16,129 bases of DNA from the IMG/VR virus record IMGVR_UViG_2563367001_000002; one strand, 5' to 3'. The notes beneath the pieces were generated by a model that saw nothing but the letters and a program-made list of their open reading frames with translations, did no database searches and had not been told where the DNA came from. The stretch's first letter is position 1, and each line of letters starts with the position of its first letter. Below, in pieces: positions 2,240 through 15,426 of the stretch. The translations under genes were made by a program, and so were the position numbers. The stretch is from a virus (taxonomy: Duplodnaviria > Heunggongvirae > Uroviricota > Caudoviricetes).

Positions 2240-2937
2240 TGCAGGATATCCGGCAGGAAACACTGAATGAATGCACCCGTGCGGAGCAGTCGGCCAGCGT
2301 GGTGCTCTGGGAAATCGATCTGACAGAGGTTGGTGGAGAACGTTATTTTTTCTGTAATGAGCAGAACGAAAAAGGTGAGCCGGTCACCTGGCAGGGGCGA
2401 CAGTATCAGCCGTATCCCATTCAGGGGAGCGGTTTTGAACTGAATGGCAAAGGCACCAGTACGCGCCCCACGCTGACGGTTTCTAACCTGTACGGTATGG
2501 TCACCGGGATGGCGGAAGATCTGCAGAGTCTGGTCGGCGGAACGGTGGTCCGGCGTAAGGTTTACGCCCGTTTTCTGGATGCGGTGAACTTCGTCAACGG
2601 AAACAGTTATGCCGATCCGGAGCAGGAGGTGATCAGCCGCTGGCGCATTGAGCAGTGCAGCGAACTGAGCGCGGTGAGTGCCTCCTTTGTACTGTCCACG
2701 CCGACGGAAACGGATGGCGCTGTTTTTCCGGGACGTATCATGCTGGCCAACACCTGCACCTGGACCTATCGCGGTGACGAGTGCGGTTATAGCGGTCCGG
2801 CTGTCGCGGATGAATATGACCAGCCAACGTCCGATATCACGAAGGATAAATGCAGCAAATGCCTGAGCGGTTGTAAGTTCCGCAATAACGTCGGCAACTT
2901 TGGCGGCTTCCTTTCCATTAACAAACTTTCGCAGTAA
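2239..2937 (+). CDS. L: Minor tail protein L (lambda gpL-like), 232 aa, Cys-rich C-terminus
   Basis: 232-aa ORF, the same length as lambda L. C-terminal cysteine cluster (CTWTYRGDECGY...CSKCLSGCKF) as in the gpL family. Conserved position. Confidence 0.9.
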   Translation: MQDIRQETLNECTRAEQSASVVLWEIDLTEVGGERYFFCNEQNEKGEPVTWQGRQYQPYPIQGSGFELNGKGTSTRPTLTVSNLYGMVTGMAEDLQSLVGGTVVRRKVYARFLDAVNFVNGNSYADPEQEVISRWRIEQCSELSAVSASFVLSTPTETDGAVFPGRIMLANTCTWTYRGDECGYSGPAVADEYDQPTSDITKDKCSKCLSGCKFRNNVGNFGGFLSINKLSQ

Positions 2938-2941
2938 TCCC

Positions 2942-3685
2942 ATGACACAGACAGAATCAGCGATTCTGGCGCACGCCCGGCGATGTGCGCCAGCGGAGTC
3001 GTGTGGCTTCGTGGTGAGAACGCCGAAGGGGGAAAGATATTTTCCCTGCGTGAATATCTCCGGTGAGCCGGAGGCGTATTTCCGGATGTCGCCGGAGGAC
3101 TGGCTGCGGGCAGAAATGCAGGGTGAGATTGTGGCGCTGGTCCACAGCCACCCCGGTGGTCTGCCCTGGCTGAGTGAGGCTGACAGGCGGCTGCAGGTGC
3201 AGAGCGATTTGCCGTGGTGGCTGGTCTGCCGGGGTGAGATTCATAAATTCCGCTGTGTGCCGCATCTTACCGGGCGGCGCTTTGAGCACGGGGTGACGGA
3301 CTGTTACACGCTGTTCCGGGATGCTTATCATCTGGCGGGGATTGAGATGCCGGATTTTCATCGCGGGGATGACTGGTGGCGTCACGGTCAGAATCTCTAT
3401 CTGGATAATCTGGAGGCCACAGGGCTGTATCAGGTGCCGTTGTCATCAGCACAACCGGGCGATGTGCTGCTGTGCTGTTTTGGTTCATCGGTGCCGAATC
3501 ATGCCGCCATTTACTGTGGTGATGGCGAGCTGCTGCACCATATTCCTGAACAACTGAGCAAACGAGAGAGGTATACCGACAAATGGCAGCGACGCACACA
3601 CTCCCTCTGGCGTCACCGGGCATGGCGCGCATCTGCCTTTACGGGGATTTACAACGATTTGGCCGCCGCATCGACCTTCGTGTGA
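2942..3685 (+). CDS. K: Tail tip assembly protein K (lambda gpK-like; MPN/JAMM-type and NlpC/P60-type domains)
   Basis: ORF in frame 2900..3685. I chose the ATG at 2942 (MTQTESAILAHARR...) because that N-terminus is the conserved one for this family. The lambda reference annotation would start at the internal ATG at 3086 (MSPEDW...), and the ORF track offers 2900, which overlaps L. HSHPGG is a JAMM-like motif; a Cys/His-containing C-terminal half is NlpC/P60-like. The 3' end overlaps I by about 100 nt, as in lambda. Confidence 0.85.
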   Translation: MTQTESAILAHARRCAPAESCGFVVRTPKGERYFPCVNISGEPEAYFRMSPEDWLRAEMQGEIVALVHSHPGGLPWLSEADRRLQVQSDLPWWLVCRGEIHKFRCVPHLTGRRFEHGVTDCYTLFRDAYHLAGIEMPDFHRGDDWWRHGQNLYLDNLEATGLYQVPLSSAQPGDVLLCCFGSSVPNHAAIYCGDGELLHHIPEQLSKRERYTDKWQRRTHSLWRHRAWRASAFTGIYNDLAAASTFV

Positions 3686-4254
3686 AAACGGGGGCTGAAG
3701 CCATCCGGGCGCTGGCCACACAGCTCCCGGCGTTTCGTCAGAAACTGAGCGACGGCTGGTATCAGGTACGGATTGCCGGGCGGGACGTCAGCACGTCCGG
3801 ATTGACGGCGCAGTTACATGAGGTTCTGCCTGACGGCGCTGTGATTCATATTGTTCCCAGAGTCGCCGGGGCCAAGTCAGGGGGCGTATTCCAGATTGTT
3901 CTGGGGGCTACCGCCATTGCCGGATCATTCTTTACTGCCGGAGCCACCCTTGCAGCATGGGGGGCAGCCATTGGGGCCGGTGGTATGACCGGTATCCTGT
4001 TTTCTCTCGGTGCCAGTATGGTACTTGGTGGTGTGGCGCAGATGCTGGCACCGAAAGCTAGAACTCCCCGTACACAGACAACGGATAACGGTAAGCAGAA
4101 CACCTATTTCTCCTCACTGGATAACATGGTTGCCCAGGGCAATGTTCTGCCTGTTCTGTACGGTGAAATGCGCGTGGGGTCGCGGGTGGCTTCTCAGGAG
4201 ATCAGCACGGCAGACGAGGGGGACGGTGGTCAGGTTGTGGTGATTGGTCGTTGA
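3583..4254 (+). CDS. I: Tail tip assembly protein I (lambda gpI-like), 223 aa
   Basis: 223-aa ORF, the same length as lambda I, beginning MAATHTLPLASPGMARICLYGDLQRFGRR... with a Gly/Ala-rich hydrophobic C-terminal half. Overlaps the K 3' end in another frame. Confidence 0.9.
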   Translation: MAATHTLPLASPGMARICLYGDLQRFGRRIDLRVKTGAEAIRALATQLPAFRQKLSDGWYQVRIAGRDVSTSGLTAQLHEVLPDGAVIHIVPRVAGAKSGGVFQIVLGATAIAGSFFTAGATLAAWGAAIGAGGMTGILFSLGASMVLGGVAQMLAPKARTPRTQTTDNGKQNTYFSSLDNMVAQGNVLPVLYGEMRVGSRVASQEISTADEGDGGQVVVIGR

Positions 4255-4274
4255 TGAAAAACGTTTTATGTGAA

Positions 4275-4300
4275 ACCGCCTCAGGGCGGTTTTGTCGTTT
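4275..4300 (+). terminator. Short I-J intergenic hairpin with U-rich tail (possible attenuator)
   Basis: ACCGCC-tcag-GGCGGT (6-bp stem, 4-nt loop) followed by TTTTGTCGTTT, sitting between the I stop (4254) and the J start (4315). Weak stem, so low confidence. Confidence 0.3.
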
Positions 4301-4314
4301 CTGGAGCGTGAGGA

Positions 4315-7300
4315 ATGGGTAAAGGCAGCAGTAAGGGGCATACCCCGCGCGAAGCGAAGGACAACCTGAAATCATCCCAGATGCTGAGCGTGATAGACGC
4401 CATCAGTGAAGGGCCGATTGAAGGTCCGGTGGACGGATTAAAAAGTGTGCTGCTGAACAGTACGCCAGTGCTGGACAGTGAGGGGAATACCAATATCTCC
4501 GGTGTCACGGTGGTTTTCCGGGCAGGTGAGCAGGAGCAGACACCGCCGGAGGGATTTGAATCCTCCGGCTCCGAGACGGTGCTGGGTACGGAAGTGAAGT
4601 ACGACACGCCGATTACCCGGACCATCACGTCTGCAAACATCGACCGTCTGCGCTTTACCTTCGGTGTGCAGGCACTGGTGGAAACCACCTCAAAGGGGGA
4701 CAGGAATCCATCGGAAGTCCGCCTGCTGGTTCAGATACAACGTAACGGTGGCTGGGTGACGGAAAAAGACATCACCATTAAGGGTAAAACCACCTCGCAG
4801 TATCTGGCCTCAGTGGTGGTGGATAACCTGCCGCCGCGCCCGTTTAATATCCGGATGCGCAGGATGACGCCGGACAGCACCACAGACCAGCTGCAGAACA
4901 AAACGCTCTGGTCGTCATACACCGAAATCATCGATGTGAAACAGTGCTACCCGAACACGGCACTGGTCGGCGTGCAGGTGGACTCGGAGCAGTTCGGCAG
5001 CCAGCAGGTGAGCCGTAATTATCATCTGCGCGGGCGTATTCTGCAGGTGCCGTCGAACTATAACCCGCAGACGCGGCAATACAGCGGTATCTGGGACGGG
5101 ACGTTTAAACCGGCATACAGCAACAACATGGCCTGGTGTCTGTGGGATATGCTGACCCATCCGCGCTACGGCATGGGGAAGCGTCTCGGTGCGGCGGATG
5201 TGGACAAATGGGCGCTGTATGTCATCGGCCAGAATTGCGACCAGTCGGTGCCGGATGGCTTTGGTGGCACGGAGCCGCGCATCACCTGTAATGCCTGGCT
5301 GACCACGCAGCGCAAGGCGTGGGATGTGCTCAGTGATTTCTGCTCGGCGATGCGCTGTATGCCGGTATGGAACGGGCAGACGCTGACGTTCGTGCAGGAC
5401 CGGCCATCGGATAAGGTGTGGACCTATAACCGTAGTAATGTGGTGATGCCGGATGATGGCGCGCCGTTCCGCTACAGCTTCAGCGCCCTGAAGGACCGTC
5501 ATAATGCCGTTGAGGTGAACTGGATTGACCCGAATAACGGCTGGGAGACGGCGACAGAGCTTGTGGAGGACACGCAGGCCATTGCCCGTTACGGTCGTAA
5601 CGTCACGAAGATGGATGCCTTTGGCTGTACCAGCCGGGGGCAGGCACACCGCGCCGGGCTGTGGCTGATTAAAACAGAACTGCTGGAAACGCAGACCGTG
5701 GATTTCAGCGTCGGCGCAGAAGGGCTTCGCCATGTACCGGGTGATGTTATTGAAATCTGCGATGATGACTATGCGGGGATCAGCATTGGCGGGCGCGTGC
5801 TGGCGGTGAACAGCCAGACCCGGACGCTGACGCTCGACCGTGAAATCACGCTGCCATCCTCCGGTACCACGCTGATAAGCCTGGTTGACGGGCAGGGGAG
5901 TCCGGTCAGCGTGGAGGTTCAGTCCGTCACCGACGGCGTGAAGGTGAAAGTGAGTCGGGTTCCTGACGGCGTTGCCGGATACAGCGTGTGGGGGCTGAAG
6001 CTGCCGACGCTGCGCCAGCGCCTGTTCCGCTGTGTGAGTATCCGTGAGAACGACGACGGCACGTATGCCATCACCGCCGTGCAGCATGTACCGGAAAAAG
6101 AGGCCATCGTGGATAACGGGGCGTACTTTGACGGCGACCAGAGCGGCACGGTGAATGGTGTCACGCCGCCAGCGGTGCAGCACCTGACCGCCGAAGTCAC
6201 CGCAGACAGCGGGGAATATCAGGTGCTGGCGCGCTGGGACACGCCGAAGGTGGTGAAGGGCGTGAGCTTCCTGCTCCGTCTGACCGTAACAGCGGATGAC
6301 GGCAGTGAGCGGCTGGTCAGCACGGCCCGGACGACGGAAACCACATACCGCTTCAGGCAACTGGCGCTGGGGAACTACAGGCTGACAGTCCGGGCGGTAA
6401 ATGCGTGGGGGCAGCAGGGCGATCCGGCGTCGGTATCGTTCCGGATTGCCGCACCGGCAGCACCGTCGAGGATTGAGCTGACGCCGGGCTATTTTCAGAT
6501 AACCGCCACGCCGCATCTTGCCGTTTATGACCCGACGGTACAGTTTGAGTTCTGGTTCTCGGAAAAGCGGATTACCGATATCAGGCAGGTTGAAACCACA
6601 GCCCGCTATCTTGGTACGGCGCTGTACTGGATAGCCGCCAGTATCAATATCAAACCGGGCCATGATTATTACTTTTATATCCGCAGTGTGAACACCGTTG
6701 GCAAATCGGCATTCGTGGAGGCCGTCGGTCGGGCGAGCGATGATGCGGAAGGTTACCTGGATTTTTTCAAAGGCAAGATAACCGAATCCCATCTCGGCAA
6801 GGAGCTGCTGGAAAAAGTCGAGCTGACGGAGGATAACGCCAGCAGACTGGAGGAGTTTTCGAAAGAGTGGAAGGACGCCAACGATAAGTGGAATGCCATG
6901 TGGGGCGTCAAAATTGAGCAGACCAAAGACGGCAAACATTATGTCGCGGGGCTTGGCCTCAGCATGGAGGACACGGAGGAAGGCAAACTGAGCCAGTTCC
7001 TGGTTGCCGCTAACCGTATCGCATTTATTGACCCGGCAAACGGGAATGAAACGCCGATGTTTGTGGCGCAGGGCAATCAGATATTCATGAACGAAGTGTT
7101 CCTGAAATATCTGACGGCTCCCACCATTACCAGCGGCGGTAATCCTCCGGCATTTTCCCTGACACCGGACGGGCGGCTGACGGCGAAAAATGCCGATATC
7201 AGCGGTAACGTGAATGCGAACTCCGGGACGCTCAACAACGTCACGATTAACGAGAACTGCCGGGTTCTGGGAAAACTGTCCGCGAACCAGATTGAAGGCG

Positions 7301-7710
7301 ATCTCGTTAAAACAGTGGGCAAAGCTTTCCCCCGTGACTCCCGAGCACCGGAGCGGTGGCCATCAGGGACCATTACCGTCAGGGTTTATGACGATCAGCC
7401 GTTTGACCGGCAAATTGTTATTCCGGCGGTGGCATTCAGTGGCGCTAAGCATGAGAGAGAGCATACTGATATTTACTCCTCATGCCGTCTGATAGTGCGG
7501 AAAAACGGTGCTGAAATTTATAACCGTACCGCGCTGGATAATACGCTGATTTACAGTGGCGTTATTGATATGCCTGCCGGTCACGGTCACATGACACTGG
7601 AGTTTTCGGTGTCAGCATGGCTGGTAAATGGCTGGTATCCCACAGCAAGTATCAGCGATTTGCTGGTTGTTGTGATGAAGAAAGCCACTGCAGGCATCAC
7701 GATTAGCTGA
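4315..7710 (+). CDS. J: Host specificity protein J (tail tip / central fibre, lambda gpJ-like), 1131 aa
   Basis: 1131-aa ORF (lambda J is 1132 aa) beginning [20 protein letters not shown]... Long collinear similarity to lambda J as I recall it. The last ~150 aa differ from lambda (receptor-binding region). SD-like GGAG upstream. Confidence 0.92.
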
Positions 7711-7729
7711 ATTTTATAACCCAGATACG

Positions 7730-7753
7730 GGCACCAGAAATGGTGCCTTTTTT
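7730..7753 (+). terminator. Rho-independent terminator downstream of J
   Basis: GGCACCA-gaaa-TGGTGCC (7-bp perfect stem, GNRA-type tetraloop) immediately followed by TTTTTT; 20 nt after the J stop. Confidence 0.8.
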
Positions 7754-7777: not shown

Positions 7778-8377
7778 ATGCGTAAATTATGTGCTGTTAT
7801 TCTGTCCGCAGTAGTCTGGCTGGTTGCCGCTGGTACGCCAGCGAGCGCAGCAGAGCATCAGTCCACACTAAGCGCCGGGTATCTTCAGACCCATACTGAT
7901 ATGCCAGGCAGTGATGACCTGAAGGGCATTAACGTGAAATACCGTTATGAATTTACGGACACGCTGGGGCTGGTGACGTCATTCAGTTATGCCAATGCCA
8001 AAGATGAGCAAAGAACGCATTACAGCGATACCCGCTGGCATGAAGATTCAGTGCGTAACCGCTGGTTCAGCATGATGGCGGGGCCATCTGTACGCGTGAA
8101 TGAATGGTTCAGTGCTTATGCGATGGCAGGTGTGGCTTACAGCCGTGTTTCGACGTTCTCCGGGGATTATCTCCGCGTAACTGACAACAAGGGGAAAACG
8201 CACGATGTGCTGACCGGAAGTGATGACGATCGCCACAGCAACACGTCTCTGGCGTGGGGAGCTGGCGTGCAGTTTAACCCGACCGAATCCGTGGCCATTG
8301 ATATTGCTTATGAAGGCTCCGGCAGTGGCGACTGGCGCACTGACGGTTTCATCGTGGGTGTCGGTTATAAGTTCTGA
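7778..8377 (+). CDS. lom: Lom outer membrane protein (Ail/Lom/PagC family beta-barrel), 199 aa
   Basis: Signal peptide (MRKLCAVILSAVVWLVAAGTPASA), alternating aromatic beta-strand pattern, C-terminal ...GVGYKF. Position right after J as in lambda. Own SD (GAGAGG) and flanking terminators. Confidence 0.9.
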   Translation: MRKLCAVILSAVVWLVAAGTPASAAEHQSTLSAGYLQTHTDMPGSDDLKGINVKYRYEFTDTLGLVTSFSYANAKDEQRTHYSDTRWHEDSVRNRWFSMMAGPSVRVNEWFSAYAMAGVAYSRVSTFSGDYLRVTDNKGKTHDVLTGSDDDRHSNTSLAWGAGVQFNPTESVAIDIAYEGSGSGDWRTDGFIVGVGYKF

Positions 8378-8403: not shown

Positions 8404-8431
8404 AGCCCGCCGGTTCAGGCGGGCTTTTTTG
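8404..8431 (+). terminator. Rho-independent terminator downstream of lom
   Basis: AGCCCGCC-ggttca-GGCGGGCT (8-bp stem) followed by TTTTTT; 27 nt after the lom stop. Confidence 0.8.
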
Positions 8432-8441
8432 TGGAGTGGAT

Positions 8442-10820
8442 ATGGCAGCAGTAAAAATCTCAGGTGTGCTGAAAGATGGTGCGGGAAAACCAATACAGAA
8501 CTGCACTATTCAACTGAAGGCAAAGCGTAACAGCACCACGGTACTGGTGAACACGGTGGCTTCTGAAAATCCGGATGAAGCCGGACGTTACAGCATGGAT
8601 GTTGAGTATGGCCAGTACAGCGTCACCCTGCTGGTTGAAGGTTTTCCGCCTTCACATGCCGGGACCATTACCGTCTATGAAGGCTCCAGACCAGGTACGC
8701 TGAATGATTTTCTCGGTGCCATGACGGAAGATGATGTCATGCCGGAGGCATTGCGTCGTTTTGAGGAAATGGTGGAAGAAGCGGCACGCAACGCTGAAGC
8801 CGCCTCTCAGAGCGCAGCGGCGGCAAAGAAATCCGAAACTGCAGCGGCATCATCGAAGAACGCGGCGAAAACCTCAGAAACGAATGCAGCTAATAGTGCA
8901 CAGGCGGCAGCGACCTCAAAGACTGCATCGGCAAACTCCGCGACAGCAGCCAAAAAATCAGAAACCAACGCGAAAAATAGCGAGACAGCCGCAAAGACGA
9001 GCGAAACCAACGCAAAGTCCAGCCAGACGGCAGCGAAAACCAGCGAAACGAATGCCAAAGCCAGTGAAACTGCGGCAAAAAACAGCCAGGTTGCAGCAGC
9101 CCAAATCGAGAGCGCGGCAGCCGGTTCTGCGACTTCAGCAGCTGGATCAGCAACTGCTGCGGCTAACAGCCAGAAAGCTGCGAAGACGAGTGAAACTAAC
9201 GCAAAGTTCAGCCAGACGGCAGCGAAGACCAGCGAAACGAATGCCAAAGCCAGCGAAACTGCGGCGAAAAACAGTCAGGATGCAGCAGCCCAAAGCGAGA
9301 GTGCTGCAGCTGGTTCTGCAAGCGCGGCGGCTGCTTCTGCCACTGCATCAGCCAACAGTCAAAAAGCAGCAAAAACCAGTGAAACCAATGCAAAGACAAG
9401 CGAGACTGCAGCGGCGAACTCGGCGAAAGCATCGGCAGCAAGCCAGACAGCAGCTAAAGCAAGTGAAGACGCAGCCAGAGAGTATGCAAGTCAGGCAGCA
9501 GAGCCGTATAAATATGTCTTACAGCCGCTGCCTGATGTGTGGATACCATTTAACGATTCGCTGGATATGATTACGGGCTTTTCGCCATCATATAAAAAAA
9601 TTGTTATTGGTGACGATGAAATAACGATGCCTGGCGACAAGATTGTTAAGTTTAAACGTGCATCGAAAGCAACCTATATTAACAAATCTGGTGTGCTGAC
9701 AGAGGCTGCCATTGACGAGCCACGATTTGAACGTGATGGCCTGCTTATTGAGGGGCAAAGAACAAACTACATGCTCAATTCGGAAAGCCCTGCAAGTTGG
9801 GGGCGATCATCAAATATGGATGTGCCCGAAACAGGGACGGATAATTTTGGTTTTACCTATGGAAAGTTTGTCTGCAACGATTCTCTGATTGGGCAAACCT
9901 CAGCCATTAATATGGCATCAATTGCTGCAACAAAGTCAGTTGATGTCTCAGGCGATAATAAACACGTGACAACCTCATGTCGTTTTAAAACAGAACTGCA
10001 GGTAAGGTTGCGTATCCGGTTTGATAAATATGACGGTAGCACAACAACTTTTCTTGGTGATGCGTATATTGATACACAAACGCTTGAAATTAATATGACA
10101 GGCGGTGCTGCCTCAAGAATTACAGCGAGAGTCAGAAAGGACGAAGCTACCGGATGGATTTTTGCAGAGGCAACAATTCAGGCAATTGATGGGGAGTTAA
10201 AAATAGGCTCTCAGATACAGTATTCTCCTGGGCAGGGTGGGGCAACAGTATCTGGTGACTATATTTATCTTGCCACCCCACAAGTAGAGAATGGGCCGTG
10301 TGTATCATCATTTATTATTTCAGGAGGCAGCGCAACGACAAGAGCCAGTGATTTGGTTAGTATCCCCACCAGAAATAATCTTTATAAGTTACCATTTACT
10401 TTTTTACTTGAGATTCATAAAAACTGGGATATTGCACCAAACGCCGCACCCCGCGTGTGGGATATAGCAGCAGCCAATACCGGGCAATCAGCAATTGCAG
10501 CAATCAACAGAGGTAGTGGTAAGTTATATATGAGTCTGTCAAACCCTTCAGGCTCGTATGTTAATAGCGCAGCGACAGATGTATTTGCAGAGAAAACCAC
10601 ATTTGGATGTATTGCAAAAGCTGATGGTCACTTTCATGTGGTGACAAATGGTAAAGCGGTTAATGAAGTTTATTGTGAATATAATGGCGTGACCGCTGAT
10701 AAAAATATCCGATTTGGAGGGCAGACGAATACTGGAGAACGACATCTGTTTGGCCATATTCGCAATTTCCGCATATGGCATAAAGAATTAAATGACAGGC
10801 AATTAAAAGAGGTCGTATGA
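8442..10820 (+). CDS. stf: Side tail fibre protein (Stf-like N-terminus, Ala/Ser/Thr-rich repeat shaft, LamG/ConA-like C-terminal domain)
   Basis: N-terminus MAVKISGVLKDGAGKPIQNCTIQLKAKRNSTT... matches the lambda Stf N-terminus as I recall it. I chose the ATG at 8442 with GGAG 5-8 nt upstream; the ORF track's 8436 is a GTG two codons earlier. The central part has KTSETNAK-type repeats. The C-terminus ends ...IRFGGQTNTGERHLFGHIRNFRIWHKELNDRQLKEVV, the typical end of a LamG (concanavalin-like lectin) domain. Confidence 0.8.
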   Translation: MAAVKISGVLKDGAGKPIQNCTIQLKAKRNSTTVLVNTVASENPDEAGRYSMDVEYGQYSVTLLVEGFPPSHAGTITVYEGSRPGTLNDFLGAMTEDDVMPEALRRFEEMVEEAARNAEAASQSAAAAKKSETAAASSKNAAKTSETNAANSAQAAATSKTASANSATAAKKSETNAKNSETAAKTSETNAKSSQTAAKTSETNAKASETAAKNSQVAAAQIESAAAGSATSAAGSATAAANSQKAAKTSETNAKFSQTAAKTSETNAKASETAAKNSQDAAAQSESAAAGSASAAAASATASANSQKAAKTSETNAKTSETAAANSAKASAASQTAAKASEDAAREYASQAAEPYKYVLQPLPDVWIPFNDSLDMITGFSPSYKKIVIGDDEITMPGDKIVKFKRASKATYINKSGVLTEAAIDEPRFERDGLLIEGQRTNYMLNSESPASWGRSSNMDVPETGTDNFGFTYGKFVCNDSLIGQTSAINMASIAATKSVDVSGDNKHVTTSCRFKTELQVRLRIRFDKYDGSTTTFLGDAYIDTQTLEINMTGGAASRITARVRKDEATGWIFAEATIQAIDGELKIGSQIQYSPGQGGATVSGDYIYLATPQVENGPCVSSFIISGGSATTRASDLVSIPTRNNLYKLPFTFLLEIHKNWDIAPNAAPRVWDIAAANTGQSAIAAINRGSGKLYMSLSNPSGSYVNSAATDVFAEKTTFGCIAKADGHFHVVTNGKAVNEVYCEYNGVTADKNIRFGGQTNTGERHLFGHIRNFRIWHKELNDRQLKEVV
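8991..9413 (+). repeat. In-frame 189-bp (63-aa) tandem repeat inside stf, about 2.2 copies, roughly 90% identical
   Basis: Unit A 8991-9179 (gcaaagacgagcgaaaccaacgcaaag...) recurs as unit B 9180-9368 (gcgaagacgagtgaaactaacgcaaag...), with a partial third copy to about 9413. Protein-level repeat ...AKTSETNAK(S/F)SQTAAKTSETNAKASETAAKNSQ...ANSQKA. Confidence 0.85.
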
Positions 10821-11095
10821 AAGATTTAACTTTGAAGTTTCATGACAAACTGCAGTTTAAGGCCTTCCTGTCATCTCTTGGCTGGGCGGAAGATGAAGAC
10901 CTCCAGAATAAACTGTTAGTTGATGAAATTGGTTTCACCTACACAGAAACAGGGGTAACAGAAGAGGGAGAACCTGTCTGTATCCGGAATGATGGTTATT
11001 TTGTCAACATTCGCATTCTTGATGACTTGTTTGATGTTTCTGTATTCTCTGATTATGTCGTGGAGCTGGAAACACCGCTTCGGGAATGGAGCTGA
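10817..11095 (+). CDS. Hypothetical acidic protein, 92 aa, translationally coupled to stf
   Basis: ATG overlaps the stf stop (ATGA, 10817-10820). Good SD (AAGAGG) 6 nt upstream. No TM segment, net acidic. I recognise no family. About 41% GC. Confidence 0.55.
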   Translation: MKDLTLKFHDKLQFKAFLSSLGWAEDEDLQNKLLVDEIGFTYTETGVTEEGEPVCIRNDGYFVNIRILDDLFDVSVFSDYVVELETPLREWS

Positions 11096-11107
11096 AAGGA
11101 GGAAATA

Positions 11108-11401
11108 ATGGATATAAGCCCCTTACTTCATGCACTTTGTGCTGTGGCTGCGCAGATACTGGTTGGTCTTTTTACCGGAAACTGGGCTTACGGAGCGATA
11201 GCCGGTTGTACGTTCTTCATTGCGCGTGAACATACCCAGGCAGAATATCGCTGGATTGAAATGTTCGGGCATGGCAAGCGAATGAATATGCCGTGGTGGG
11301 GCGGTTTTGATCCGCGAGCTTGGGATGTGGCAAGCCTGATGGATTTTGCTGTGCCGGTGGTGGCGTGTCTGCTGGTCTGGCTGTTGGTTAATCGTGGGTG
11401 A
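11108..11401 (+). CDS. Hypothetical small membrane protein, 97 aa, two predicted TM helices
   Basis: Strong SD (AAGGAGG) 5-6 nt before the ATG. Hydrophobic stretches LLHALCAVAAQILVGLFTGNWAYGAIAGCTFFI and FAVPVVACLLVWLLV. Family not recognised. Confidence 0.55.
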   Translation: MDISPLLHALCAVAAQILVGLFTGNWAYGAIAGCTFFIAREHTQAEYRWIEMFGHGKRMNMPWWGGFDPRAWDVASLMDFAVPVVACLLVWLLVNRG

Positions 11402-11411
11402 AAAAAGGTGA

Positions 11412-11541
11412 GCTGTATATGCAACGGAGGAAGAAACCCCGTTGCTGGAAGCCAGGAAAAAGTATCGGGTGTTGCTGAACCGTGTTGATACATCAACTGC
11501 ACCTGATATTGAGTGGCCTACGAACCCTGTCAGGGAGTAAT
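11412..11541 (+). pseudogene. tfa: Tail fibre assembly protein (Tfa) C-terminal remnant, about 42 codons (tfaD-like)
   Basis: Frame translates ...[39 protein letters not shown], matching the conserved Tfa C-terminal motif (...[26 protein letters not shown]). No N-terminal part; an in-frame stop lies immediately upstream (11409-11411). Confidence 0.7.
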
Positions 11542-11554
11542 CATTGGGATTATG

Positions 11555-11604
11555 CCGCAGCACGTCTTAAGCAAGAACGTGCTGCGGTTGGATGCTATTT
11601 TTTC
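11555..11604. terminator. Hairpin between the convergent Tfa remnant and methyltransferase gene (candidate bidirectional terminator)
   Basis: Perfect 11-bp stem CCGCAGCACGT / ACGTGCTGCGG (11555-11565 and 11577-11587) with an 11-nt loop; a T-run (TATTTTTT) lies 9 nt downstream on the + strand. No U-tract on the minus-strand side. Confidence 0.45.
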
Positions 11605-12263
11605 CCTGAAGCGGAAAACATTACTACAGTACCTTGAACCTTGGTTTTAACATTCTCGAAATGCTCTGAGAGTATATGTGTTAAGCCTTCTTCGGAATCT
11701 TTTGTGTTTGAAAAGATGCCTTTCTGATTGTAAATGCGCATCAGTTTTTGACCGAAGCTATTGTGCACAACGCCGTCACCAAGAATTGTGGCTCCGTATA
11801 GAGTTCCATCGTCAGTTAAGGCCTGCGCCGCATTGCGTATTACACAGCTTTTTGTAGATATATTTCCAGGCAGGCAGTGAAGAAGGTAAAACATGGAAAT
11901 GGAATCAAATTGACCATGTAACGCCGCGGGATAAGGATCAAAAACATCATGGCTAATTTTATGTTTAATTTTTGATTCCCCAGCCCTTGTAGATGCCGCG
12001 TTCAGGCTAGCTTCGTTCAAATCCATTAAAGATATCAGACTACTCTCAGGTACGTGAGTAAGGTAAAACCCAGTTCCAACACCAATATCCAGATGGTTGT
12101 TACCTAAATGTTCCAGAAAGTGTGGAAGAAGGTGTTCCTTTGTAGGACATCCCCATGCAAGCCGATTTGATACTCCCAAAACCCACCAGTCATAAAGCTT
12201 TAGGGTAAGTGGTGTGTAAATTTTAGCCCCATCATCTGTGTTTTTTTTCATTAATTTCACCAT
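11595..12263 (-). CDS. ybcY: Class I SAM-dependent methyltransferase (ybcY-like), 222 aa
   Basis: Motif I LDIGVGTG (GxGxG), acidic residue in LMDLNE about 20 aa later, motif II-like FDSISMFYLLHCLP. Sits between two Tfa remnants exactly like ybcY in the K-12 DLP12 tfaD-ybcY-tfaX arrangement; the symbol is assigned from that context. A second in-frame ATG at codon 5 (CDS 11595..12251) has a better SD (GGTGA). Low GC. Confidence 0.7.
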   Translation of the reverse strand: MVKLMKKNTDDGAKIYTPLTLKLYDWWVLGVSNRLAWGCPTKEHLLPHFLEHLGNNHLDIGVGTGFYLTHVPESSLISLMDLNEASLNAASTRAGESKIKHKISHDVFDPYPAALHGQFDSISMFYLLHCLPGNISTKSCVIRNAAQALTDDGTLYGATILGDGVVHNSFGQKLMRIYNQKGIFSNTKDSEEGLTHILSEHFENVKTKVQGTVVMFSASGKK

Positions 12264-12319
12264 GTTATAGTTTTATTTGTGAATTAAATCAATTATGGCG
12301 ATGAATTACAAGGGGTTAA

Positions 12320-12618
12320 ATGCTGCCGCAGCATAGCGATATTGAAATAGCCTGGTATGCTTCGATACAGCAGGAGCCGAATGGCTGGAAGACCGTCACC
12401 ACACAGTTCTACATCCAGGAATTCAGTGAGTATATTGCGCCACTGCAGGATGCTGGGAAATCGCAACGGAGGAAGAAAGATCGTTGCTGGAGGCATGGAA
12501 TAAATATCGGGTATTGTTGAATCGTGTTGATACATCAGTAGCTCTGGGTATGAAGCTGTTTGTAACTCATGTTACAGTAACAACCATTACTATCTCGAAG
12601 GTGCAAAATGTATATTGA
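12320..12618 (+). pseudogene. tfa: Tail fibre assembly protein pseudogene (tfaX-like), frameshifted
   Basis: One frame gives ...[10 protein letters not shown] and, after a shift of frame near 12455, ...[30 protein letters not shown]... These are both parts of the conserved Tfa C-terminal domain, split across frames. The C-terminus diverges from the Tfa consensus after VDTS. Confidence 0.6.
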
Positions 12619-12746
12619 TTTGATATTTTATAAATTTACTTCGAATCTGGCACGTCAACTTTTGATTAAAGTAATATCAGTTTTCGGCGAAAAAAGGACC
12701 GTGTATATGAGACGATTTCATACAAGAATAACAAAAATATGAATAT

Positions 12747-12780
12747 GCTCCCAATGCAATATATGTTTTGCATTGGGAGC
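12747..12780 (-). terminator. Rho-independent terminator for the minus-strand peptidase gene
   Basis: Perfect 12-bp stem GCTCCCAATGCA / TGCATTGGGAGC with a 10-nt loop, 22 nt downstream of the peptidase stop. On the minus-strand transcript it is followed by AUAUUCAUAUUUUUGUUAUU. Confidence 0.65.
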
Positions 12781-12801
12781 AAATAGCGGAATATTTTGAA
12801 A

Positions 12802-14286
12802 TTATTGTATTTCTGCTTCAGAATTTCCTGGGCAGTATATATTTTCTATTTTTTGTGGAGTGATCAGGTGATGTACAACTGCTTTATCTACACATAAATT
12901 AACTCCGGTGAGAGCTAATGTATGCCCATCACCATTTATTGTTAGTAACGGGCTGGAAAATTTCTCTGCCATCTTACGGGCATTAATCCAGGGCGTTGTT
13001 GGGTCGTATTTGTGTGCTACAAACAGTAAACCAGAGGGCAGAACAGTATTTTTCAGGCGAGTTTTGTTCAGGTCGCTATGTATTGGCCATAATTCACAAA
13101 AATCAGGTGAATCGGAACGTCCATTGTCAAAGTTAATGGCCGGGAAGGCATTCGCAAGAGCGTCTTTTCGGGATTTTCGCTCTTCTGGTGTTAATTGCTC
13201 ATCCCCCTGATCTACACAGAGGATTACCCCCGAAGCATCGCTTGACTCTTCTGAGGCTATCGGAGCACTGAGCGCAGTTTCAATTTCATTACTGACAATC
13301 CCCTGAGAGAACTGGCGTATGGCAGTTGCAAGGGTTGGCCATGATGAACGCCATAGCAGAAGGTCTGTTGTTAATGATATGAGTTCATCTGAAGATATAT
13401 TTTCTCCCTTACTGTCTAATAAAGGTTTGTGATGTAATTTTGATAATAGCTCATGGAACTGAGTTATTGCCTTATCTCTGTCTGAAGAAAGCGGGCAACT
13501 TTTTGTACGCGCACACCAGGATGCAAAGCGATCAAACGTTTCCTGATAACTCTGTGCCTGTTTGAGTTGCCATGTGAAGTTGTCCTCCAGGTCATCGATA
13601 TCGACGACTCCATCAAGAACGATAGATCTTACGTTGTAGGGAAAACGTTCTGCATATAAGGCTGCAATTTGAGTTCCATACGAATACGCCACGGCTGTCA
13701 GTTGTTTATCCCCCAAGGCTTGCCTAATACGATCAATATCGTATACAGCCTCGTTAGAGCCGATATGGCGAATGACTTCGGCTCCGGTATTATGGATACA
13801 GGCATTAATTTTATTTAATACTTGTTGCTTTTCGGTTATGTTTTCCTGAGTCTCTGTATCTGATTGCCGGCAGTTTATTGTCGGAGTGGACTGTCCGACG
13901 CCTCGAGGATCAAATCCAATAATATCCCATGACTCACGAAGATTTGTGACTGGCCAGTCAAAGTTAATATAAGGATTTATGCCTGGTAACCCGGGACCAC
14001 CACTTATTATCAGGATACTTCCTTTATGCTTGCTTTTTGCCGGCAATTTTGTCAACGCTAGTTTGACTTGTGATTTTTTTTCATAAGAAGCATCTCCGCC
14101 TGTGTCTGTATATTTTAATGGAACAGACAAATAACCACATAGTAAGTCAGGAGACGGTTTTTCCTCACCAAACCAGTGGTTGAATTGACTGGCCATACAG
14201 GATTGCCACTGTATCTGCTGGGCAGATACGGTTACTGGTAGAAGTAACGTTAAAACAACTTTGAAATGAGTAATTATTTTTCGCAT
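12802..14286 (-). CDS. Signal-peptide-bearing (exported) alpha/beta-hydrolase peptidase, S33 / TAP-like (tripeptidyl or prolyl aminopeptidase family), 494 aa
   Basis: N-terminal signal peptide (MRKIITHFKVVLTLLLPVTVSA|QQ). GGPG oxyanion motif (ILIISGGPGLPG), GFDPRGVGQS, nucleophile elbow AYSYGT (GxSYG-type), C-terminal Asp/His region (INGDGHTLAL). Low GC. Confidence 0.75.
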   Translation of the reverse strand: MRKIITHFKVVLTLLLPVTVSAQQIQWQSCMASQFNHWFGEEKPSPDLLCGYLSVPLKYTDTGGDASYEKKSQVKLALTKLPAKSKHKGSILIISGGPGLPGINPYINFDWPVTNLRESWDIIGFDPRGVGQSTPTINCRQSDTETQENITEKQQVLNKINACIHNTGAEVIRHIGSNEAVYDIDRIRQALGDKQLTAVAYSYGTQIAALYAERFPYNVRSIVLDGVVDIDDLEDNFTWQLKQAQSYQETFDRFASWCARTKSCPLSSDRDKAITQFHELLSKLHHKPLLDSKGENISSDELISLTTDLLLWRSSWPTLATAIRQFSQGIVSNEIETALSAPIASEESSDASGVILCVDQGDEQLTPEERKSRKDALANAFPAINFDNGRSDSPDFCELWPIHSDLNKTRLKNTVLPSGLLFVAHKYDPTTPWINARKMAEKFSSPLLTINGDGHTLALTGVNLCVDKAVVHHLITPQKIENIYCPGNSEAEIQ

Positions 14287-14424
14287 TGTGTCTCTGAATA
14301 TCGGAATAAAGATAAGATTTGAATATATTGAGGTCTTGTGTTGCGGTAAGAGATTACACGTTATGACATAGGTTAAATGCTTACAAAATTAGTGGATATT
14401 GTCTACTTGTAACTGTAAACAAAT

Positions 14425-14453
14425 TCCCCGGGGTTATACAATACCACCGGGGA
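14425..14453 (-). terminator. Candidate terminator for ompT
   Basis: TCCCCGG ... CCGGGGA inverted repeat (7-bp stem, 15-nt loop) about 20 nt downstream of the ompT stop, followed on the minus-strand transcript by AUUUGUUUAC. Confidence 0.5.
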
Positions 14454-14472
14454 GAAAATCTGGTTAACTTCG

Positions 14473-15426
14473 TTAAAAGGTGTACTTAAGACCAGCAGTA
14501 GTGATGAAGTTATAGTTTTCTATGCCTGCACCATTTTTGCTGTAGTCTGAAGTGTTATCATTGTGATCATAAAGTGAAGTATTACCTTTTTTATTCGTAA
14601 CCCGATTCCATGCGCCTTCAACATAAACTTTTGCGTTAGGTGTTACGTAATAACCTGCATTGACTGCAACAGAATAGTAATTTTGGTCTTTGACTTTACT
14701 GCGATAAGTGATTCTTTTTCCTGGGTCATAGTGCTCATCGTTATCAGATGCTTCCACCCAGCCGCTGTATTTAAATGTGCCACCTAGCTCAAAATCTTCA
14801 TAACGATAACTTCCAGTCAAGCCAATGTAGGGCATTTTAAAACGTTGTTTGTAGCCGATTGCTCTTTCTCCATTCGGGAAGGAGCCGATATCATCTCTGA
14901 ATCCCTCCTCAGAACTGTAGATATAGGAACCACCTCTGGCTGTAAAGCTATAACGGCTTTCCTGATATCCGGCCATGAGTCCCAGGCGGTAATTGGGTTC
15001 GTTGAGGAGCCAGCCTTTGATATTCAGATCAAATTCGTTGGCATAATTGAGTTGTGTATCAGGGTGCCTACTTTCATCTGTCCAGGTTCCGGGGTTACTG
15101 GAATCCATCCAGTCCTGATCGACCATATTGCCACCTCGGCTGCCGAGAGTAGTCCAGCCCGCAGCCCCAATAGATATCTGGGGCATCAAATCCCAATTAA
15201 TTGCACCTTTAATAATTGCAGCGTTATTGAATTTCCAGTCAAGTTGACTGACTTTTCGGCCTCCTTCTTCGGCTAGATAAACACGCTCTTTTGTTTTTCC
15301 GCTCAGAGTTCCAAGACTAATGTCCGCATTTATGTTGTCAGGAGTAAACGATAAAGTCTCGGTAGAAGCAAAAGAGCTGATCGCAATAGGGGTTGTCAGG
15401 ACTATTCCCAGAAGTTTCGCCCGCAT
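14473..15426 (-). CDS. ompT: Outer membrane protease OmpT (omptin, peptidase family A26), 317 aa
   Basis: 317-aa ORF with signal peptide MRAKLLGIVLTTPIAISSFA and C-terminal ...TTAGLKYTF. Essentially collinear with E. coli K-12 OmpT as I recall it. GGAG SD 8 nt upstream of the ATG. Confidence 0.93.
   Translation of the reverse strand: MRAKLLGIVLTTPIAISSFASTETLSFTPDNINADISLGTLSGKTKERVYLAEEGGRKVSQLDWKFNNAAIIKGAINWDLMPQISIGAAGWTTLGSRGGNMVDQDWMDSSNPGTWTDESRHPDTQLNYANEFDLNIKGWLLNEPNYRLGLMAGYQESRYSFTARGGSYIYSSEEGFRDDIGSFPNGERAIGYKQRFKMPYIGLTGSYRYEDFELGGTFKYSGWVEASDNDEHYDPGKRITYRSKVKDQNYYSVAVNAGYYVTPNAKVYVEGAWNRVTNKKGNTSLYDHNDNTSDYSKNGAGIENYNFITTAGLKYTF

Follow-up and report, generated by a model that had tools for sequence, protein, structure and literature searches.

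A common phage-21-type side tail fibre ending in a two-domain, lectin-like head with a linked partner gene

The DNA considered here, called the window throughout, is the whole of a 16,129-nucleotide stretch of a tailed-phage genome (Caudoviricetes; IMG/VR record IMGVR_UViG_2563367001_000002), which holds the distal part of a lambda-type tail operon, running from the tape measure protein through small tail genes, gpJ and lom to the side tail fibre gene stf. The latter occupies 8442..10820 (+) and encodes 792 amino acids (aa) plus a stop, according to the list of open reading frames (ORFs) and the translation. In its product, a lambda-like virion anchor and a heptad-repeat shaft carry a head module of about 430 aa, which takes the place of the lambda-type tip, is predicted to form two beta-sandwich domains with one variable cassette in each, and is followed by a small linked gene, orf92. 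With a probability of roughly 0.6, the head is a reversible, non-enzymatic binder of a surface glycan, which would speed adsorption before gpJ engages its receptor. The sequence itself is not unusual and the discovery is a modest one, in that the gene is present in phage 21, the fibre is of the common and already catalogued phage-21 type, the domain models of NCBI and Pfam already flag it, and lambdoid side fibres with an exchanged lectin-like tip are well established. Mildly new are the two-cassette anatomy of the head with its defined junctions and the linkage of orf92 to the module.

Anchor and shaft

The fibre is encoded by a single ORF with possible starts at 8436 (GTG) and 8442 (ATG) and an end at 10820, and the RefSeq start in a 98%-identical prophage is the ATG equivalent to 8442. 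In phage 21 the equivalent gene is annotated as a side tail fibre; E. coli RefSeq entries use the name 'prophage tail fiber N-terminal domain-containing protein', and RefSeq names for proteins of this kind also include 'phage head spike fiber domain-containing protein'. The position of the gene downstream of J and lom is that of the Stf family in lambdoid tail operons. The N-terminal virion-attachment (collar) domain with its linker, similar to lambda StfN, lies at 8448..8837 (+) and matches Pfam phage_tail_N (PF08400) over residues 3-132 (E 7e-67, 223.9 bits vs a cut-off of 26.6). The original prediction for this locus, drawn from the letters of the sequence, had described a side fibre with a lambda-like N-terminus, a repeat shaft and a distal part unrelated to that of lambda, and these three elements stand. 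Identity to lambda Stf (orf-401) is 87-88% over residues 1-100 and 84% over residues 1-118, and in Ur-lambda residues 1-91 of Stf form the collar on the gpV/gpM junction (PMC12617516).

Tandem repeats and heptad periodicity follow directly after this N-terminal part. The shaft, at 8785..9494 (+), comprises about 235 residues rich in Ala, Ser, Thr, Lys and Glu; Tandem Repeats Finder reports arrays at 8942-9413, with a 189-nt unit present 2.3 times at 8979-9413 and sub-repeats of 21/42 nt, and the residue autocorrelation reaches 0.50 at lags of 7, 14, 21 and 28 vs about 0.15 elsewhere. A heptad coiled-coil proximal shaft is typical of the Stf family, and the periodicity, together with the description of the Ur-lambda fibre (PMC12617516), points to a trimeric coiled coil here as well, even though the alignment with the proximal coiled-coil region of lambda is loose (44% by BLASTP, lambda residues 119-342). 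Other long ORFs cross the shaft repeats in alternative frames, at 8731-9570 on the (+) strand and at 8807-9247, 8890-9153 and 9208-9441 on the (-) strand; comparable to lambda orf206b, which lies inside stf, they are most likely by-products of biased, stop-poor repeats.

Beyond the shaft the likeness to lambda ends. The C-terminal 446 aa gave no alignment with the distal Stf of lambda (orf-314; best E 0.88), an outcome that would otherwise have refuted the original prediction, and the gp37-like distal rod and tip that go with a cognate Tfa gene in the Stf family are absent, tfa being represented by a remnant of 39 codons. No Peptidase_S74 Pfam match, which would mark a C-terminal intramolecular chaperone, was found in Stf.

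The two-domain head

The AlphaFold2 model of the head, computed from a 46-sequence alignment, is all-beta and of high confidence (predicted local distance difference test score, pLDDT, 91.8; predicted template modelling score 0.87), with a short neck and two beta-sandwiches at roughly module residues 57-296 and 300-446. The protein had been said to end in the signature of a LamG-type lectin domain, and this was right in part: the sequence FGHIRNFRIWHKELNDRQLKEV is present and located at the end of a Laminin_G_3 match, but the head consists of two domains and not of a single LamG domain. Likewise, the architecture is chimeric as proposed, but it is not peculiar to this locus, being that of an ordinary phage-21-type Stf.

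Head domain 1, at 9744..10346 (+), is a beta-sandwich (pLDDT above 90) that includes the variable cassette V1 (about 9780-10255) and belongs with the head spike fibres of gene transfer agents (GTAs). Residues 435-635 match the NCBIfam model GTA_spike_fiber (NF048003) over positions 1-181 of 182 with 51.4 bits vs a cut-off of 36, and a phmmer search against the PDB identified the head spike fibre Rcc01080 of the Rhodobacter capsulatus GTA (RcGTA; 6tb9 chain F3) with E 9e-8 over about 245 residues. Rcc01080 is a head decoration of 325 aa whose first 10 residues anchor it to the capsid-vertex pentamer, and it has neither a lambda-type anchor nor a coiled-coil shaft. The match to it ends at module residue 303, i.e. 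at residue 285 of its chain, and the remainder is too short for a second Laminin_G_3 domain to fit. In both proteins the homologous domain is the distal, ligand-facing part of the fibre. Nevertheless, head domain 1 of the window shares the domain of the GTA protein and not its role, in that it does not attach to a capsid vertex but is fused to a tail-collar anchor and shaft within a tail operon.

Head domain 2, at 10437..10802 (+), includes the variable cassette V2 (about 10465-10700) and matches Pfam Laminin_G_3 (PF13385) over residues 666-787 (profile positions 27-149 of 151, E 2e-5, 25.1-25.2 bits). It is homologous to Laminin_G_3 at the family level and has a predicted ConA-like jelly-roll fold; among the 46 aligned homologues, 26 match the same model at E<=1e-3, the best with E 5.7e-14. 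The longest fold matches of the head align 188-198 residues, which exceeds the 146 residues of this last domain, itself the one matched by Laminin_G_3, and for this reason both domains are probably ConA-like. A tandem duplication as the origin of the two domains was considered and is unsupported at the sequence level (hhalign probability 0.1%).

The ConA-like superfamily also includes glucanases, and the head might be a glycan-degrading enzyme of that type, a depolymerase or lyase that cuts O-antigen or capsule in the manner of a tailspike. We consider this improbable: a regular-expression search of the head found no catalytic motif of the GH16 type (ExDxxE-type), and the top fold matches are non-catalytic modules. 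The non-catalytic, carbohydrate-binding modules of ConA-like fold to be compared with the head are AbnA domain 4, CBM40, the Hc-N domains of botulinum and tetanus neurotoxins (BoNT/TeNT), pentraxins and LamG domains; their identity to the head is only 7-18%, their biological context differs, and their ligand-binding residues cannot be transferred to it.

Variable cassettes

The conservation profile of the module in the 46-sequence alignment shows three high and two low segments. Conservation is highest in the neck and first framework strands (module residues 16-100, 9525..9779 (+); 56-74% column identity to the query), where nucleotide similarity is detectable even to the T5-like phage VSe12. 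It is low over module residues 101-260 (9780-10255), which form V1, rises again in the segment PQxExG...TRAxD (residues 261-300, 10260-10379), falls over residues 301-420, which contain V2 with its variable core at 10465-10700, and is high once more in the segment RHLFGHIRNFRIW (residues 421-440, 10740-10799). In the predicted structure, the conserved segments correspond to the first and last strands of each sandwich.

The identities of V1 and V2 to those of the window are 93% and 99% in phage 21, 98% and 37% in Tritos, 90% and 37% in tunus, and 28% and 29% in an E. ruysiae prophage, and in many E. coli genomes the match to the module is restricted to its first 800-880 nt. On these sequence comparisons, the two cassettes reassort independently. 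It is the pattern to be expected of an adhesin in which exposed surfaces diversify and the framework strands act as recombination sites.

Composition and mosaic junctions

A sharp fall in G+C content (GC) near nt 9480-9600 had been claimed as well, with a plot of codon usage across the gene as the proposed check, and both the fall and a parallel one at third codon positions were found. GC is 0.525-0.544 over 8442-9524 vs 0.426 over 9525-10817 (chi-square p 8e-8), and GC at third codon positions (GC3) drops from about 0.48 (0.46-0.51) to 0.35 (p 2e-4). The maximum-likelihood change point is nt 9507, with a likelihood ratio that was reached in none of 500 permutations. An explanation by the Ala-rich shaft as a mere amino-acid effect was rejected on two grounds, the parallel fall in GC3 and the significance of the change point. 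For comparison, the GC3 of the tail genes H to J is 0.60-0.70, and the distal stf of lambda itself is less depressed (GC 0.52, GC3 0.48). The module, with GC 0.43, resembles the same module in low-GC virulent coliphages (0.39-0.42), and in all the lambdoid or chromosomal contexts examined its GC lies below that of the flanking DNA.

The change point falls within the left mosaic junction at 9480..9525 (+), where homology to phage 21 resumes (9498), homology to tunus starts (9480) and the family-wide conserved motif PLPDVWxPxNDSL begins (9525). A second junction, at 10453-10464, recurs in comparisons with Tritos, AST216, tunus, VSe12 and L009. Relative to lambda, nucleotide similarity stops at 8794 and resumes only at 11420-11589, which covers the last 39 codons of tfa and downstream DNA, so that the distal stf and most of tfa have been replaced by the shaft, the head, orf92 and orf97, a small gene further downstream. 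The right-hand scar of this replacement is the 3' remnant of the lambda-type tail fibre assembly gene tfa at 11421..11537 (+), where tblastn aligns residues 156-194 of lambda Tfa at 85% identity; the RefSeq equivalent is labelled as an incomplete tail fiber assembly protein. A second remnant of a tfa 3' end lies at 12457-12543 (+) (Tfa residues 154-182, about 85% identity), and the two suggest that recombination took place repeatedly at the conserved end of tfa and left them as scars.

Phage 21 matches the window at 83% in nucleotides over 8425-8971 and at 93.7% over 9498-11477. With Tritos and the AST216 prophage, a similarity of 94-98% over 8425-10464 gives way to divergence over 10464-11097 and then resumes. 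The virulent T1-like phage tunus shares exactly 9480-10464, i.e. neck and head domain 1, at 83.9% nucleotide identity (tunus locus 2501-3485). This segment, common to prophage and tunus and bounded by the recurrent junctions, is a case of fibre-module exchange between temperate and virulent coliphages. Horizontal acquisition of the module, as originally proposed, is thus upheld, since the recurrent breakpoint coincides with the GC change point, the module also sits on P2-type and TSP1/Gp66-type N-termini and in four unrelated virulent phage groups, and a tfa remnant is left behind.

Distribution and relatives

At 50% clustering and E<=1e-3, the module has 2022 representatives, and its place is always the very C-terminus of the protein, with 0-7 residues beyond it across 51 representatives. 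The N-termini that bear it are of the lambda type, the P2 type (Phage_tail_fib) and the TSP1/Gp66 type (Tail_spike_N). At the level of megablast, 1597 of the 5426 complete E. coli genomes contain part of the module, and in 452 the match covers 80% of it or more. A genome scan located it in prophages of Escherichia, Leclercia, Silvania, Buttiauxella, Atlantibacter and Aeromonas, and tblastn matches were obtained in lambdoid phages, Drexlerviridae, Markadamsvirinae (T5-like), Queuovirinae and Vequintavirinae. Outside the lambdoid group, relatives of the module are thereby seen on fibres of phages of the T1, T5, rV5 and Nonagvirus types. The enterobacterial module is also carried by records labelled 'Campylobacter phage C15' (135 kb, rV5-like; 39%) and 'Listeria phage LM 4-11-1' (a 1.5-kb fragment; 75%), whose host labels look doubtful.

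The closest relatives are phage 21 (OL657228, CPT_21_22), an isolate of the 1950s whose complete genome sequence was reported in 2022 (PMC9119081), and ev207, mEp460 and related lambdoid phages or prophages, all of which have the same gene order J-(lom)-stf-orf92-orf97. In phage 21, the head module, orf92 and orf97 are 93.7% identical in nucleotides to 9498-11477, whereas the N-terminal 180 aa reach only 83% nucleotide identity and the shaft is about 106 aa shorter (686 vs 792 aa for the protein); the shaft of the window instead matches the Tritos/AST216 type. In ev207, the whole stretch from stf to orf97 is 94.8% identical. Lambda, in its Ur-lambda form, shares with the window the collar domain, the linker, the proximal heptad coiled coil and the position after J and lom, and presumably also the way in which four trimers are fixed at the gpV/gpM junction (PMC12617516), but it has in addition a hinge, a gp37-like distal rod, an OmpC-binding tip and a Tfa chaperone, all of which the fibre of the window lacks. 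The Stf of Gifsy-1 is reported to be 50.65% identical to that of Ur-lambda, with conserved residues along the entire protein (PMC12312913).

Among virulent phages, the lateral fibres of Drexlerviridae (tunus), Markadamsvirinae (VSe12, AKFV33, SP15), Queuovirinae (JenP1) and Vequintavirinae (FFH2) end in the same C-terminal module at 36-74% aa identity, followed by a homologue of orf92, but their N-terminal anchors and shafts are those of the respective virions, and there is often an extra distal fibre gene after orf92. The DT57C (PMC4728585) and Cronobacter (PMC12090712) fibres described in the literature are different, being of the S74-chaperone type.

Proposed function

In the model that we propose, by analogy with Ur-lambda (PMC12617516), twelve N-terminal domains would form a collar on the gpV/gpM junction, with the chains joining in threes into four coiled-coil fibres, each of which would end in lectin-type heads in place of the gp37-like rod and the OmpC-binding tip. 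The heads would bind a surface polysaccharide without cleaving it, the candidates being O-antigen, lipopolysaccharide (LPS) core, capsule and enterobacterial common antigen, and this reversible binding would enrich virions at the cell surface ahead of the contact between gpJ and its outer-membrane protein receptor. Each domain would owe its specificity to its own variable cassette, and the conserved strands that frame the cassettes would double as recombination sites and allow the cassettes to be swapped independently among temperate and virulent coliphages. A host range altered with respect to the classical lambda fibre, which had also been suggested, would be in keeping with this model. The preference for a glycan ligand derives from the fold and from two precedents: the RcGTA head spike fibre, which is the nearest characterised sequence homologue, binds capsular polysaccharide (PMC10218006), and the lateral fibres of T5- and T1-like phages have been described or proposed as reversible O-antigen binders (PMC8594841).

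Several points weigh against this interpretation. The Laminin_G_3 score of head domain 2 is 2.5 bits under the gathering threshold of 27.6; the ConA-like fold of both domains is deduced from aligned lengths and from the Pfam match of domain 2; and the head was modelled as a monomer, so that the arrangement of three heads on a trimeric shaft is a projection from it. In addition, the literature searched contained no experimental receptor assignment or adsorption data for this type of head, and rough K-12 was the isolation host for many carriers of the module, which shows that such hosts do not require the fibre.

Plating of many module-bearing phages on rough K-12 would also suit a head whose ligand is an outer-membrane protein, comparable to OmpC for lambda Stf, with the lectin fold serving as a scaffold for protein-protein contacts, and LamG, pentraxin and BoNT Hc domains are indeed known to bind protein ligands too. 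However, the lateral fibres of these siphoviruses are dispensable on K-12, which makes plating uninformative on the ligand (PMC8594841), and capsule is the ligand of the nearest characterised homologue by sequence (PMC10218006). A pair of hypervariable cassettes that exist in many alleles across E. coli, moreover, suits the diversity of surface glycans better than that of conserved porins, and a protein receptor therefore appears unlikely. The lectin-type head of what is a very common allele makes surface glycans the ligands to examine. Side tail fibres govern the adsorption speed and strain range of lambdoid phages and of lambda-derived delivery particles, and the head offers defined engineering junctions at about nt 9480-9525, 10453-10464 and 10700.

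Partner genes

The small partner gene orf92 (92 aa) lies at 10817..11095 (+), and its start overlaps the stf stop in ATGA, which suggests that it is translationally coupled to stf. Assigned to phrog_1361 (function unknown), it matches no Pfam or NCBIfam family, and no structural neighbour of it is informative. By a hidden Markov model search, it is found directly downstream of the module in 17-18 of 21 module-bearing loci, distant Enterobacterales included, and homologues of 41-58% identity stand at the same position in VSe12 (T5-like), JenP1, tunus and FFH2. As orf92 is positioned where tfa sits in lambda, its product most likely assists in the assembly of the head or forms an accessory subunit of it, possibly as a chaperone or adaptor that stands in for Tfa. 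Specific co-variation of orf92 with V2 was considered and is unsupported: in the E. ruysiae locus orf92 is 90% identical while V2 is 29% identical, and the correlation between the two is attributable to physical proximity. The linkage of orf92 to the module implies that head transplants should include orf92.

The orf92 homologue has another fibre gene directly behind it in Tritos, AST216, JenP1, tunus and VSe12, and in Tritos, JenP1 and tunus this other gene combines a shared N-terminus with a C-terminus of the Peptidase_S74 intramolecular-chaperone type. This third fibre gene, which occupies the place between the equivalents of orf92 and orf97 (Tritos 5661-6701, AST216 12078-13115, JenP1 4099-5154 and tunus 4132-4869, in the coordinates of each locus), is absent from the window and from phage 21. 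Its N-terminus is coiled-coil-like, with the pattern MxTxTVIPxDIxxLKxDV. The presence of the gene suggests branched fibres in those relatives that carry it, and T5-like phages are known to have branched fibres made of LtfA and LtfB (PMC4728585). The structural neighbour Pa193 gp46 has a fibre-attachment loop (PMC11456595).

From these findings it could be argued that the module and orf92 are mainly a docking platform for a separately encoded distal fibre, and that the second gene has been lost here, leaving the fibre incomplete or weakened. Of the alternatives to glycan binding by the head, this one is the least probable. Phage 21, ev207 and others are viable and form plaques with the identical two-gene arrangement and no third gene, and the hypervariable cassettes expected of an adhesin sit in the head itself; the two roles could, besides, coexist. 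In a wider proposal, the head module and orf92 constitute an uncharacterised, Tfa-independent fibre-tip system in at least five coliphage lineages, with three lectin heads per shaft, two independently exchangeable specificity cassettes and orf92 as a new assembly factor or adaptor that in some phages docks a second fibre. We offer this proposal tentatively, as it is more apt to be wrong than right; if true, lambda-based delivery particles could be redirected to surface glycans by plugging in the compact unit of head and orf92.

The next gene, orf97, at 11108..11401 (+), encodes a small predicted membrane protein of 97 aa (phrog_1443), to which the phage 21 annotation assigns two transmembrane domains. 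A GC of 0.53 sets the gene apart from the low-GC head and orf92, and its association with the cassette is limited to lambdoid phages. The gene may be a moron or of the superinfection-exclusion type.

Neighbouring features

Upstream of stf, gpJ (4315-7710) has all J domains and is followed by lom (Ail_Lom) at 7778-8377. A G+C-rich hairpin with a T-run is present just 3' of J at 7729-7748 (+), and another just 3' of lom at 8404-8425 (+), the latter with a stem of 8 bp that includes 7 GC pairs. As phage 21 has no lom, the terminator annotated there lies both immediately 3' of J and just upstream of stf. Read-through under Q antitermination is presumably needed for stf to be expressed.

Past the fibre cassette, three low-GC genes occupy the (-) strand over 11595-15426, namely a class I S-adenosylmethionine-dependent methyltransferase (11595-12263), a 494-aa alpha/beta hydrolase of phrog_20134 (12802-14286) and ompT (14473-15426). 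These opposite-strand genes, ompT among them, indicate that the window spans a prophage end or a cargo region beside ompT.

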